Assembly: GCA_951406725.2 (NCBI GenBank)
Contig: OX597830.1
Location: forward strand, 76,508,001-76,572,000
Origin: Octopus vulgaris
Lineage: Eukaryota
Reading direction: 5' to 3'
DNA: 64,000 nucleotides
The translations under genes were made by a program, and so were the position numbers. Under the pieces are notes generated by a model. It did not search any database. It was given only the letters and a program-made list of their open reading frames with translations, and was not told the DNA's origin. Positions within the stretch are counted from its first letter, which is position 1; every line of letters starts with the position of its first letter. Positions 1,088 to 58,632 of the stretch are shown piece by piece.

Positions 1088-1460
1088 AGATAAGGAAATG
1101 GAGAAATACATCCATATCAAATATCAATTACCAGATAATACTCAATTACATACTTTATTAAACCACCCCATAAGAGACTGTAGGGCTAAATATAAAAAGC
1201 AGAACAAATCAGTGTACATAAATGAATGTACATAAAAAAGTGTACATAAAAGAGTAATGTTGTATAATAAGTAGAATATATATAAAAGAGAATATAAATA
1301 TAAGCAAATATAAATATAAGTATAGGTTACATCTTACAGCTGTTTTGGCCATGTAGATAAGTGTGTCTCATTTTACAAATATTATCCTTTTATGGTAGGT
1401 CAATATATAGATATAAATGAGACATTTACAAAAATATCATAAGGCATCTTCGGAGATTAT
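1088..1460 (-). mobile_element. Penelope-like terminal (pLTR-like) fragment with decayed hammerhead motif, abutting (TA)n
   Basis: Minus strand reads ATCT-CCGAAGA-TGCC...GGCC-AAAA-CAGCTG-TA-AGAT, then AATAAA and (TA)n; its end resembles 28610-28700. Confidence 0.6.
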
Positions 1461-2355
1461 GTAATATAAATCAGTCTATATATATACCCACATGGTTGTG
1501 GGTGCATACCCATATTACAACATATATATATACATATGGGTGCACATACTCACACTCTTATATATATAAAAAATATACATATACATAATGATGTAAATAA
1601 ATAATATAAATTAGTAAACATATATATGTGTTCCACATTCAATGTCTCAGTTTATCGACTTAATATTGTAATAATAAACATACACAAGTTAGTACCTAGA
1701 TGCAAATATACATAGTCAATAATACATTATATTACTTCATACTAATTTCTAAAGTGTCATTAAAGTTAGCATCATTATTGTTGTCAATACCATTAATGTT
1801 ACCATTATTATCATTCATAATATTATTAATAACGCTTACATTAGGATCCAGAGCGGTATATATGTTCGGGTTCCATTTAGTAATTTTCCTTATGACATAA
1901 ATACACTATTGGATTTGAATTTAAAATTATCATTATCTTCCTCACGGTTGGTCAATTGAGAGCCGCCCGACCTCCACCACACCACACGTGCATGTGTGTG
2001 TGAGTTTCTGTGTTGATGTGTGGGTTTAGGGTTAGATATGGATGTGTATGTTTTGCTTGATTTGGATGTATTTCTCCATTTTCTTATCTTGTATTAGTAA
2101 TTTGTGGTAAATCATTTTACCTTGCCCATATAATGCAGTAAATGAATTGATTGCATCGCAATCAGTAACATTTATGTATTAACTTTGTTGGGTACTTCAC
2201 TAGCAGTATATTGGATATATGTTATCCCATGGAGGGTTGCATTTACAACCCCTATCTCAATCAGGGTAGGAAGAAGTTTTGGAAGTTTATTTACTCCCAG
2301 TAGCGTAGCATGTAGAAAACTAGTCAATAGACTGTATATTGTTCATGTAAATACT

Positions 2356-2740
2356 GTGTACATTTAAATACTTAAGAGGTGACTCTCATAGGACAGCTAG
2401 CATGCTAGAAGGTGTAGCCAAAATCTAAACCACTATTAAGGATAAATTTCGAAGGGAATGAAAAATAAAAACATTTACCATCCACCTCCTCGACCATAGT
2501 TTCAAACTTTAAATTAGCAAATAAGATAATTTGCTAGGCGGAACTTTCTTCAGCAGGTATGCAAAGATTAACATATAACTACGAGGCAATACAGTATATG
2601 CCTCGTGCTTATATATATATATATTAATTTTTCAAATCCACCTTCGAAATTTATCCCTAATAGTGGTTTGGATTTTGGCTATTACTTCTAGCATGCTAGG
2701 TGTTCTATGATGGTCACCTCTTATGTGTTTAAATGTACAC
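2356..2740. repeat. Imperfect ~100-bp inverted repeat (arms 2356-2455 and 2641-2740)
   Basis: gtgtacatttaaa...aatttcgaagg is the reverse complement of ccttcgaaattt...tttaaatgtacac, with scattered mismatches. Confidence 0.85.
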
Positions 2741-2879
2741 TGAATATGTATATATATATATATATACATCCATATATATATATATATATATATACATGCA
2801 CATAAATGCACATATCTGTGTTTGCATGTTAGTGTGCGAATTTATATATACTATAAGAGTTTAATATATACTGTTTTAA

Positions 2880-3090
2880 AGGCTGCGAGCTGGGAGAATC
2901 GTTAGCACGCCGGGCAAAATACTTAGCGATATTTCGTCCGTCTTTATGTTCTGATTTCAAATTCCCCTGAGGTCGACTTTGCCTTTCAGCCTTGGTGGGG
3001 TTGATAAAATAATGTACCAGCTTAAAATAGGAAGTTGATGTAATTTCTTACCTCCTCCCCCGAGAGTGTTGCTCTTGTCCTAAAATGTGA
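2880..3090 (+). mobile_element. SINE family A (tRNA-like head; core resembling the MetaSINE domain), diverged copy
   Basis: Head ggc(t)gcgagctgg..gttagcacgccgggc and core gaggtcgactttgcctttca..gataaaa..gtaccag, shared with 22699 and 37832. Confidence 0.8.
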
Positions 3091-3376
3091 AAAAATATTA
3101 AATGAAACCTGTGCTTGACGAGCACAATAGTTTTTAGGAATCTCGAAATGATGAAAAGCAAATGTTGAACTCTACCAAATATAGTTATTATCGCTTGTGG
3201 TTATAGAAAACCCAAGATGGCTGCTTGCAGGAAATTTCAAATAATAGATGTGCTCATCGGTCAAAACTGTCTTATGGTTTAAGAATCAGGCAAATCAAAT
3301 CACATTGTAAAGTATGCACGCTACCACACACACACACATATGTATATATATATATATATATATATATATATACACA

Positions 3377-54878: not shown

Positions 54879-57800
54879 TTATTATTATTATTATTATTAT
54901 TATTATTATTATTATTATTATTATTATTATTATTATTATTATTATTATCATCATCACCATTATTATTATACAGGCACACCAGTCTGTAGTATGTCGGATA
55001 AAATACGTTGTGGTTTAATGTTACGAGACTCCTATAGGTCTGAGTTCAAATCCTGTCGAATTTAGCGTTGCCATTTTACCAATTCGCCATTCTTTTACAA
55101 TATAACCGATCCAGTGCTGGTGACGGTCTAATTAAGCCTACAAACCACCTGCTAATGTTATGACATAGTTTATGAGACATCACTATTTATACAAAGTGTT
55201 TATAATTGGGAGTAAGTTATGGTATCGTGTATTTCAAAAAAAAAATAAAATAAAGACATCGTGTGCGGTTTGTGGCAGCACGGTGGATGGGTGTGTTTGA
55301 GTTGTGTAAAAAATAAGAAGGCGTCTCAAATGTCCATGTGTGTGCGTTTGCATAAGTAAGGGTATGAATGTGGCGTTTGCATAACTATGAAGTGTTAAAT
55401 GTACGTATATATGTATTGGCATGAATACGTTTGAACACACAAAGTCAACACAGTGATATTATATATATATATATATATATATATATATATATATATATAT
55501 ATTTATATATATATATGTATGTATATATATATAATATGTATATTTAACATATATATTTAACAAATATATATGTATGTATTATATATATATATATATATAT
55601 ATATATATATATATGTATATATATATATAATATATATATATATATATATATATATATATATATATATATATCATTCATATTATTATTATTATTATTATTA
55701 TTATTATTATTATTATTATTATTATTATTATTATCTGAAAACAGTTTGATTCGATTCCATTTAACTGTTTTAAATAATATATGTAACTTCTACTAAATGC
55801 GTTGATTGCCTCTTCCTTTCGTTTACACATTCAAGTATGTGTATATATATATATACATATATATGTATGTATGTATGTTCGTACGTATGTTCGTATGTAT
55901 GTTCGTATGTATATAAATATGTGGGTGTATATGTATGCTCATATGTGTATATACACATACACGCATACATATATAACTATATACATACGCATGTGTGGAT
56001 ACGTATGTGCGTGGCTTTGTGTATGATTGCGCATTTGTCTGTAAATGTGCGTACGTGAAAGCAAAGTTAAAGTTTATAATCGAACATACTGGAAATGTAC
56101 GTAAGAACTAGCTCGTTTCCTTATATGAGAGTGTACAATACATTTACTTATGTACGTGAATGGCTTTCTACGTATGAATGCATGTATTTATGTTCGTGTA
56201 TGCCAGCGTGTTGACAGAGACATAAACTGTAGCTATGAGCGTCCATTGACACTTTTAATGGCGGAAAGAAAGCGAAACACGGTGCTGGAACAAAATGGCC
56301 GCCACATAAACAACATAAAATTGTGACAGCGCTCTTATTTCTTCTACGTTGCGGTTTTGTTGAATTAGACACCAAACAGTGTTATTATGTACAACTTGTG
56401 GGGATATTTTATTGCTGCCGTTGTTGTTGATGTTTGCCATTGTGGTTTAGATGTTTTGCTGTTTATATTTGTACAGATTTTCTGGTTGTCGTTGTTGTGG
56501 ATTATAGAGCATGCTTTACGATTTGTATTTACGCTTTATTTTATCCTTCTTGATGATGTTGTTGCTAACACCAAAGGTTCTTGTTTTCTAATCTTTATTG
56601 CTATAGTAGTAGTAGTAGTAGTAGTAGTAGTAGTAGTAGTAGTAGGAGTAGTAACTGCTGTTGTTGTTTTCGGAATTGGTTTAAAGTGTCATGGCGAATA
56701 AAGGATTGGATTTATGGATGTTGCTGTTGCCGTTCTTTTATTTGTTGATCCTTGGAATTTTAAATTTGCGGTTTTTAGCTTCCTCTTTTATTCCCTTTTG
56801 CTTGTTTCAGTCATTTGATTGTGGCCATGCTGGAGTACCGCCTTTAGTCGAGCAAATCACTCCCAGGACTTATTCTTTGTAAGCCTAGTACAAGTCATTG
56901 CTCAGGCTGGGGCTACAATAGAAGATACTTGCCCAAAGTGCGCTGCAGTGGGACTGAACTCTGAACCACGTGGTTACAAAATGAGCGTCTTTACAACGAA
57001 CTCATGCCCTCGTTTATATATGCTTATATGTATGTATGTATATATGTATGTATGTTATATATGTGCAGATTTGTATGTTTTATGTATGTATTCTCATGCA
57101 CATATTTGCATATCTAGACATGTATGTATGTATGTATGTATGTATGTATGTATGTATGTATGTATGTATGTTGTGTATGTATGTTCAAAGAAGCAAAGAA
57201 ACTGTTGATAAATACAGAAATGGCCAGTCTTCACTTTATCAAGTTTTCATCTCTAAACTCTTAATTTTATTCTGCATTCTGTTTTTAACTTTCTTTCTTA
57301 TAATCTGACCCCGACGATAGAATCGGAATTTATAGTCCACCTGACCCTTGTCTGTATATTTCTGTAATTTTTATTTTGATTATATTTGTATTGTGACAGT
57401 CACTACATCTATGTCTATAAACTACTGAAAATAACACTGCTTAGGATTTGCATCCCCATACGGAATAAAATGACAGTAGGATCTTACCGAGGACTTATTT
57501 AAACAATCACTTGAGGTGTATTTAATACCTTCGATGGATTATGATGATTACACAAAATCTCACCAATGGAATATGTGTGAGAAAAATTTGCTGAAACGAT
57601 TGTTGTGATTTTAAATACTCAATATTATTCATCCCATTTTCTATCCACATACATACATGCATACATACATACAAACATACATACATACATACATACATAA
57701 ATATATATATATATATATATATATATATATATATATATATACTCACTCACACATACGTGCGCATATGCATACATAAATACATACATGCATGCATACATGC

Positions 57801-57943
57801 TTGCGTACATGTATGCATACATATATACATACATATATGTGTGAATTGGTGTCTGTATTTGGGATTTCTCCTATCACTGCTTGACAAACCGTATTGTTTA
57901 GTTTACTTCCTCGATACATAGCGGTTCGGCAAAATATACTGAT

Positions 57944-58264
57944 AAGCGTAAAGTGTAACCTCTCGAAAGAGCTGTTCTTCACTCCTGCTCCAGAGCGTCG
58001 GCTGCGTGGTCATTCCGAAAAGCTCTACCAGCGACGATTTCATCTCAATCGAAGGAGAGGAGCTTTCTCCGTCCGGGTTGCGGATCCGTGGAACAATCTG
58101 CCAGACGAGATAGTGAAGATGCCGACGACCGCTTTGTTCAAAGCCTCCCTTGACCTCAAGTGGCCTGAACTCTTTACATGGACACCACCCTGTACTTAAC
58201 TCCATGTCTCCCTACATGGCCTTGCTATTTGCTTTTGAGCCAAATTAACTAACTAACTAACTAA
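57944..58264 (+). mobile_element. 3' fragment of the same LINE family as 24099-25715, inserted in a SINE B tail
   Basis: Close reverse-complement match to 24110-24427, with (TAAC)n tail. Confidence 0.92.
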
Positions 58265-58399
58265 GTGCCAGACTTAAAAGCCTAAACAAGTAATAGGGTC
58301 AATTTGTTCGACTAAATATTACAAAGCGGAACCCTGGTATGGCTGCTGTCCAATGACTGAAACAAGAATATTTATATATATATATATATATATATATAT

Positions 58400-58632
58400 A
58401 TAGGAATAGATGAAAAATGGAAAAGAGCAAAGCATTTGGCGTAAAAATATGAAGTATAAATAAAATATAGAACAGTTATAATACATAAGCAAAGTCTCCT
58501 ACAGCTGTTTCTGGAATAGCTGATCAAGTGAATCATGTTAATGTGTAACAAATTCACGTAAACCAAGCATCTCGTCATCGAAGAGATCGGATCAGAAACA
58601 GCTGTAAGCTTAGCTGTTCCATGCTTCCGTTA
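58400..58632. mobile_element. (TA)n-adjacent insert with two inverted hammerhead half-motifs
   Basis: tacagctgtttctg (58500-58513) / cagaaacagctgta (58593-58606). Confidence 0.55.

Follow-up and report, generated by a model that had tools for sequence, protein, structure and literature searches.

We analysed a 64,000-nucleotide stretch of the Octopus vulgaris genome (assembly GCA_951406725.2, contig OX597830.1, positions 76,508,001 to 76,572,000 of the forward strand; hereafter the window), in which an earlier reading based on the letters alone (the sequence-only reading) had placed seven hammerhead-ribozyme motifs beside TA microsatellites. The seven loci are very probably 3' remnants of seven families: five are Penelope-like elements (PLEs) with a hammerhead in their pseudo-long terminal repeat (pseudo-LTR), one is likely a repeat copied by a PLE and one is likely of the same kind. 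We refer to loci and families as A (1331), B (18769), C (26190), D (28800), E (36325), F (47116) and G (58496), and use L-numbers as labels of fetched genome loci. The association between PLEs and hammerheads is known, including in octopus; what is new here is a set of additional families with variant features and one retrozyme-like derivative.

Hammerhead motifs of the window and their dispersed families

Hammerhead-type motifs are present at all seven positions where the sequence-only reading had seen them. The numbering of hammerhead positions and the reading of reverse transcriptase (RT) motifs follow common usage. The window holds much TA, CA and other simple repeat, and the searched genome amounts to 2.8 Gb. 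The window has six matches to GAAA followed by a perfect 6-nt palindrome and UH, whereas 200 dinucleotide shuffles done within 200-nt blocks averaged 0.315 and never exceeded 3; because C and G each hold an inverted duplicate, the six matches come from only 4 loci. The full hammerhead descriptor matched twice (shuffle mean 0.04, maximum 1). One of these matches, C, is a chimera, and D escaped the descriptor, its stem I having just 2 contiguous pairs. These figures exceed those of shuffled sequence, a comparison that the sequence-only reading had suggested as a check. Reversed-pattern controls for the A, B, C and F patterns gave 0 matches genome-wide, and the motifs stand at the place expected in a PLE. 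Chance matches in AT-rich repetitive DNA are a practically negligible explanation; short CG-type half motifs do arise by chance or in unrelated short interspersed nuclear elements (SINEs), but full family motifs refute chance at six loci, G depending on weaker, older copies. At least 10 such half motifs lie in the window. A 183-bp unit of a common SINE-like repeat forms three tandem copies at 17001-17561, and SINE-like repeat pieces throughout the window give GAAACGTT look-alikes at 9503, 13997, 22913 and 37849. No hammerhead family appeared among the 150 of 345 matches listed from an Rfam E-value scan, which were dominated by microsatellite matches to microRNA families.

Genome searches showed that each locus belongs to a separate dispersed family, in line with the view that the elements are sequence-distinct. 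The scored list of 40 candidates was filled for all seven loci, with copies on many chromosomes; these lists are lower bounds and are biased toward query-like copies. Identity of the top copies was highest in D (~100%) and lowest in G (70-89%) and E (80-87%); it was 93-96% in B, 94-95% in A, 91-96% in the 3' part of C and 88-96% in F. Exact patterns matched the A core 249 times, 5'-extended B 203 times and the 3' half of C 107 times; the whole F ribozyme gave 124 matches to a pattern that tolerated one mismatch, although the matches listed had none. Copies within families share a fixed 3' end and have variable 5' ends, forming truncation ladders. A TA run or the family's own tail adjoins the 3' end in 25/25 A, 28/30 B and 29/30 D copies, whereas about 4% of window positions have a TA run equally close (in a slightly narrower test), and (TA)n insertion was also seen at F ends. 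The proposed targeting of microsatellites thus holds for nearly all A, B and D copies examined. Within the window, the TA-rich boundaries ascribed to every locus are found on both sides of B, D, F and G and fully on one side only of A and E; C has just a short TA run on its 5' side.

The suggestion that the loci carry all or part of a ribozyme stood as far as the motifs are concerned, but the whole core is present in cis solely at B and D, and five of the seven window copies (A, C, E, F, G) are unable to form the ribozyme in cis (Table 1). The B hammerhead has a 4-bp stem II, GAAA, CG and a GUU site after 18799. Alignment of 25 copies showed that A has the private core changes G10.1U (1446) and G12A (1346) besides the family-state U4C. 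The apparent 193-nt stem II of C is a rearrangement, in which an inverted segment of ~115 nt (~26242-26357) divides the ribozyme, and the family value is 45 nt. The core reported at 36325 was also misplaced, since the true core of E lies further upstream and is missing here because of 5' truncation. Other E copies hold the full family motif with a helix II region of 77 nt; E as a family with a novel core was ruled out, the real core being 77 nt upstream of GAAA. The F insertion includes a tail (46912-47018) and an inverted arm (47135-47244). At 58496, where motifs had been called on both strands, the minus-strand motif is degenerate and the plus strand merely holds a short inverted duplicate of the 3' half (GAAA 58595).

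Table 1. Remnants of the seven families and their hammerhead motifs, in window positions
Feature	Positions	Strand	Remarks
Family A, 3'-terminal 905 nt of Hydra-type PLE (long 3' UTR, pseudo-LTR)	1083..1987	-	95% identical to L236 3' end
Family A hammerhead remnant	1331..1457	-	CCGAAGA core, 100-nt helix II region, CAGCTG helix III, GUA site
Family A inverted 5' segment	1988..2261	+	ends in ~175-nt tail
Family B, last ~211 nt of Neptune-type PLE, between TA runs	18695..18905	+	longer copies reach ORF
Family B, complete minimal type I hammerhead motif	18769..18803	+	stem I 4 bp, CUGACGA, extra A
Family C, rearranged insertion of 523-nt non-coding periodic unit	25910..26742	-	tail 25910-26030, inverted 3' copy 26528-26742
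Family C split hammerhead	26190..26411	-	5' half 26406-26400, 3' half 26206-26195
Family D, 3'-terminal 726 nt of very young Hydra-type PLE, between TA runs	28607..29332	-	~100% identical copies
Family D hammerhead	28800..28913	-	core CUGAAGA/GAAA/GUC intact, 85-nt helix II hairpin, CAGCTG helix III
Family E, old PLE 3' end	36290..36418	+	truncated inside helix II region; 3' ribozyme half only, GAAA 36355
Family F, Hydra-type PLE 3' end truncated inside ribozyme	46912..47244	-	GAAA 47132; 3' ribozyme half kept
Family G, decayed 3' end of old family	58415..58640	-	degenerate core, 63-nt helix II region

Linkage to Penelope-like coding elements

The absence of an RT or GIY-YIG open reading frame (ORF) from the window was upheld by tblastn with PLE proteins, which gave no matches there. 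Elsewhere in the genome, A, B, D, E and F are linked to such ORFs or their remnants and for C and G no ORF was found. Truncated PLE termini and non-autonomous retrozyme-like units, which had been put forward as alternatives, are both present, the former at five loci and the latter at C. The single ORF of endonuclease-bearing (EN+) PLEs, combining RT and GIY-YIG, is tied to the ribozyme end in D (unbroken), F, A (one frameshift) and B (decayed).

For D, the linkage was first seen via head-to-head pairs leading to an RT/GIY-YIG ORF, and in L281 the same hammerhead is preceded, 2.0 kb upstream, by a 955-codon frame without a break. The protein has RWR, DKT, the RT motifs, a CxCX5C linker, GIY-YIG, CxxC-E and CxH; it has 424 homologues, many with PF26215 and a few with PF00078, and a sequence labelled as a protein of Octopus sinensis is 97% identical to the RT upstream of D. 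A programmed frameshift, considered because the three first D ORFs shared a shift at a C run, was rejected in favour of a homopolymer variant, as the run is in frame in 8/29 copies (a sample biased toward the query's frame state) and L281 is unbroken. This run lies at the RT/thumb boundary (L062:4535-4559, L250-L279), where 21/29 D copies are frameshifted, as is the A copy L236 at the same place; a defective D master amplified in trans, homopolymer slippage or an assembly error may be responsible.

Family A is the sister of D in the RT tree (support 100/100; one A-versus-D alignment contained an off-target row, L230, and was read by eye only). Its copy L236 consists of an RT/GIY-YIG ORF with one frameshift, a 1.9-kb untranslated region (UTR) and then the ribozyme. 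Comparison of L171 with L236, L182 and L164 revealed a 3' UTR version of ~0.75 kb with a canonical U4 core (L171) and one of ~1.9 kb with U4C. In F, an 822-codon frame is flanked by two ribozyme copies 6,167 bp apart (L443). Long B copies have a CA-rich 3' UTR of ~1.1 kb and then a GIY-YIG/RT ORF (L327, L382); the ORF of L382, although decayed, has DKG, a CX4CxxC linker and a CCHH-type endonuclease upstream, and the linking UTR is common to 4/4 other long copies, three of them over more than 1.1 kb. The best 30 B matches all start near one point, two having a few extra bases, but B as a fixed 219-nt retrozyme was rejected because the 203 matches with the 5' extension led to the ORF. For E, a decayed Hydra-like endonuclease with a GIY-YIG remnant lies ~0.5-0.85 kb upstream in L109 and L087, and both loci have this stretch in common with L091 and L093. 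An upstream walk from G reached ~600 nt of family sequence among old copies, and no linked ORF was found within 1.5 kb in 53 loci; G is likely an old family of the same kind as the PLE-derived others. A distant Hydra-type endonuclease query retrieved one other young family and no partner for C, E or G. ORF fragments near B (L012, L014), F (L157), C (L352, L357, L369) and G (L418, L134) were discarded as links, being separate insertions by orientation or intervening repeats.

The published diagnostics of the Hydra clade are DKT, an RWK-like motif, a CxCX5C linker, CxxC/CxH and no CCHH, and those of Neptune are DKG, a CX2-5CxxC linker and CCHH in the C-terminal GIY-YIG (PMC8557442). DKT is found in A, D and F, with RWK in A, RWR in D and KWK in F. 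All endonuclease marks are present in D; F has the linker and CxxC in a frame that stops before CxH, and those of A were read from L171 DNA. By these motifs, A, D and F appear to be Hydra-type and B Neptune-type. Most copies map to PLE pseudo-LTRs of described clades, which lessens the novelty as the sequence-only reading had foreseen.

The likeness to the Hydra clade (PMC8557442) extends to RT followed by GIY-YIG, (TA)n targets, a hammerhead near the 3' end with palindromic helix III and, in some families, U-U at the base of helix II, 5' truncation, inverted copies and a one-ended tail. The octopus units differ in their size of 5-6 kb with 3' UTRs of 2-3.3 kb, in U4C cores, in tails of ~80-180 nt against the published 30-40 bp and in a helix II of 45-100 nt (A, C, D, E, G) against a loop 2 of 3-9 nt in the Hydra rows of File S2, where two Selaginella rows have loops of ~30 nt. 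Craig et al. 2021 (PMC8557442) already describe Hydra-1_Obim of Octopus bimaculoides as preferring (TA)n and carrying a hammerhead; its ribozyme in File S2, compared by eye, is unlike all seven. B resembles Neptune PLEs with minimal hammerheads (Cervera and de la Pena 2014, PMC4209133) in DKG, linker and CCHH, in the extra nucleotide after A9 and in the CG palindrome that replaces helix III. It is unlike them in that most sampled copies are cut to ~211 nt, in its rare 219-nt tandems and in its U4C subfamily. Animal PLE hammerheads are described there mostly as single motifs of truncated PLEs, with some inverted pairs and low activity as dimers.

Beyond the seven families, at least 8 further Hydra-type families have open frames of 660-907 codons and helix II regions of 47-60 nt (L215-L234); L231 among them is a direct tandem, near-perfect, whose period is 3,624 bp. 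In a young Neptune-like family (L298-L321, e.g. L302 904 -, L303 2668 +) the frames have 781 codons and the ribozyme has a U3-A8 covariant core (UUGAUAA), as described for Schistosoma PLEs.

The ORF-free family C differs in organization. In unrearranged copies the ribozyme has CUGANGA and 5-6 pairs in stem I; its helix II region measures 45 nt with U-U at the base, helix III is CAATTG and the site is GUA. Upstream of the ribozyme the family's own 3' end follows again with a period of 523 nt. This junction is crossed in 30/30 loci fetched by a junction query, which selected for it, and two whole ribozymes stand in direct tandem in at least 5 loci (L075, L361, L371, L379, L479). Copies mostly span 0.5-1.6 units. 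A second sample comprised 30 of the 107 exact pattern matches, taken in genome order with 1.5-kb flanks; ends cluster mostly at two places ~125 nt apart, and a same-strand PLE ORF lies within 1.5 kb upstream in 0/30. No linked ORF was found within 1.5 kb in 80 C loci, the samples overlapping in part. Parts of the unit are covered by contigs from four runs presumed to be RNA, which are uninformative on ends or circles.

Non-LTR retrozymes (Cervera and de la Pena 2020, PMC7229834) are similar to C in being non-coding, low in GC (C 35%) and periodic; each unit has a single type I hammerhead, and some dimers occur beside many monomers. C differs in its dispersal in (TA)n, its PLE-type inversions and tail, the fact that no long arrays were seen, and its 523-nt period; since this monomer is outside the 150-450 bp of animal retrozymes, we file C only as retrozyme-like. 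A PLE origin of retrozymes has been proposed (Li, Clavereau and Pollet 2026 preprint, 10.64898/2026.07.22.740005). It is very unlikely that most or all seven loci are independent retrozymes cycling via self-cleaved circular RNA, the PLE link being ancestral. The periodicity, junctions and tandem ribozymes of C and the direct 219-nt tandems of B would agree with such a cycle, but A, B, D, E and F run into ORF-bearing elements, the B tandems (4/7 pattern matches at 3 loci, one a trimer) are few beside the 203 exact 5'-extended matches, and the C monomer exceeds the published size.

C could instead form the 3' end of an autonomous PLE with long copies that the searches missed, just as B seemed a fixed 211-nt element in its best 30 matches until the pattern search; just 30/107 exact C matches were fetched, and copy L353 adjoins a Hydra-type RT fragment in opposite orientation. 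We consider this unlikely, as the 30 pattern loci keep the 523-nt period for at most 600 nt before passing into TA, inverted own pieces or unrelated DNA, with no same-strand PLE ORF upstream, and a head-to-head pair 5.85 kb apart (L477) gave no ORF match. As C and G have no linked ORF, neither is filed as an autonomous PLE. The best reading of C is a non-autonomous, retrozyme-like unit, likely copied in trans by a Penelope-like enzyme; some caution is due, as B gave a similar picture before its extension was found. At L353:927-1345 and L352:1936-2830 the 5' ends of C copies are fused to inverted pieces of other PLEs (a Hydra-type RT and a Neptune-type 3' part), which would represent template switching or nested insertion. 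A rearranged C derivative at L478:1468-3252, present as three repeats that are 99.5% identical and have a period of 594 bp, is an incipient satellite.

Variation of the ribozyme

The helix II regions all fold as hairpins and measure 100 nt in A, 85 in D, 77 in E, 63 in G and 45 in C, and 50-60 nt in other ORF-linked families. Among 9 ribozymes (one row out of register), 8/17 predicted pairs changed on both sides, suggesting that the long helix II is kept as structure. The whole D ribozyme region folds with z = -4.7. Stem I of the window D copy is weak (2 pairs, two U-U mismatches, 2 pairs), and it is weaker in the 30 youngest D copies than in older ones.

At family level, the intact core that had been expected is canonical in B, C, D, E and F, whereas A and G carry U4C. 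This change was counted in 23/25 A, 15/23 G, 25/91 B (with linked diagnostic sites), 4/23 E, 3/48 C and 0/29 D copies, the F sample having been selected for U4; among the first 100 of 249 exact A core matches listed, 97 have CCGA. L225 carries U4C in all three of its ribozymes together with an unbroken 778-codon frame and pseudo-LTRs that are 99.5% identical. As A and L225 are parted by U4 lineages in the tree, parsimony gives two origins of U4C, with B as a third. U4C in a viroid lowered in vitro activity and still permitted infection (PMC3088659), and it is predicted to weaken cutting here. The U4C cores, the long helix II and the weak stem I would all fit weak or optional cleavage.

It is possible, if rather doubtful, that the ribozyme motifs are inert relics and that the hairpin alone, or nothing, is under selection. 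This would account for U4C being the main state in A and G, marking a subfamily of B and occupying all three copies of L225 beside an intact frame, as well as for the weak stem I of the youngest D copies, and RNA-seq gave no reads ending at a PLE cleavage site (PMC11167929). Yet ~40 distinct motifs in the fetched DNA vary in their stems with pairing kept and helix III palindromic, evidence that is partly circular because the descriptor selects cores and stems. In 48 C copies positions 5, 6 and 9 never change, whereas all four bases occur at the free position 7 (C and A in 17 copies each, G in 8, T in 6), and in the viroid U4C lowers activity without abolishing it.

It is tempting to speculate, though only tentatively, that octopus PLEs repeatedly gave up ribozyme speed in exchange for something else: U4C would have spread from at least three origins (two Hydra-type lineages and a Neptune-type subfamily), helix II would have expanded to a conserved hairpin of 45-100 nt, overlooked by standard descriptors and possibly a binding handle for RT or endonuclease, and C would be a 523-nt retrozyme keeping the module and the two RT starts. 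If true, the genome would be a natural allelic series for PLE hammerhead function. PLE hammerheads may also merely ride along (PMC8557442). Natural pairs, such as D with U4 and its sister A with C4, and the minimal non-coding C make the role of the hammerhead in PLEs testable, and the genome offers many young, intact, (TA)n-targeting PLE families with wide ribozyme variety. Ribozyme censuses that set short limits for stem II may undercount cephalopod genomes.

In the literature searched we found no published precedent for amplified U4C, a helix II of 45-100 nt or tails of 80-180 nt, and no paper that treats retrozymes of octopus, PLE hammerheads with a long helix II or PLEs with U4C; this search covered open literature without Repbase and is weak evidence. 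Lunse et al. reportedly list many PLE hammerhead variants, which may cover long helix II or U4C.

Insertion at TA runs

Two-ended insertions have a tail at exactly one outer end, in 9/9 D and 10/10 F cases (one being the window copy) and in the window copies of A and C. Tails measure 173-184 nt in 11/13 A cases, 78-86 nt in 17/17 F cases, ~180 nt in D and ~125 nt in C. Pseudo-LTRs arising from partial tandems, and inverted 5'-truncated copies, are seen in L062, L236 and L443 and in the window at A, C, F and G. The tail has been described as unique to PLEs and tied to two internal RT start sites, in a study of the Poseidon element PAc of Anolis (Frangieh et al. 2024, PMC11167929). The octopus families resemble PAc in having two discrete 3' ends per family and AT-rich targets; PAc belongs to another clade, and the two ends lie 80-180 nt apart in the octopus families. 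In that study the ribozyme requires protein to cleave, and ribozyme-dead mutants still insert in vitro.

We infer that target-primed reverse transcription by PLEs at TA runs gave rise to all seven loci, and the enzymology, the cleavage and the mobilisation of C in trans are part of the same inference. The element's GIY-YIG endonuclease would nick (TA)n, and the RT would start at either of two internal RNA sites, giving the primary end or the tail end. Copying would usually end early or fold back, leaving most insertions with no more than the last 130-900 nt, often with an inverted piece. The hammerhead sits 60-270 nt before the primary end and would be present, whole or cut, in nearly every insertion, explaining the high density of motifs in TA-rich DNA. 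In families where it is intact, the ribozyme likely cleaves weakly, as a dimer through its palindromic helix III or with help from protein, and is likely dispensable for each single insertion step.

Several observations weigh against this PLE-based account. Pfam gave no significant family on the D proteins, so the RT and endonuclease call rests on motifs and the 424 homologues, and the RT tree contains genome copies and unnamed homologues without reference Hydra or Neptune proteins; the clade names therefore rest on motifs. The elements (D ~5.2, A ~5.1, F ~6.2 kb) exceed the size generally below 3 kb of published Hydra elements, a descriptive rather than diagnostic value (PMC8557442); the excess is due to long 3' UTRs, and we therefore use the term Hydra-type. 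E is tied to a decayed endonuclease alone (best E-value 1e-8, L109), and C and G have no linked ORF. The 9 ribozymes compared for covariation are related, and their pair changes are not independent. For the window copies of B and D, minimum-energy prediction gives folds other than the hammerhead.

In another very young Hydra-type family (L227, L480-L509), with at least 62 identical endonuclease copies, the hammerhead has a helix III that is longer and irregular. Its 3' UTR of ~3 kb consists largely of TA/TG microsatellite, and elements of this sort may help microsatellites to spread. The window also contains an inverted repeat with 233-nt arms that are 90% complementary (19012-19691). RT ORF fragments that by eye resemble long interspersed nuclear elements rather than PLEs lie at 12370-12900 (+), 19777-20178 (-), 24414-25700 (-), 27423-28016 (-), 48262-48900 (-) and 54584-54850 (-).

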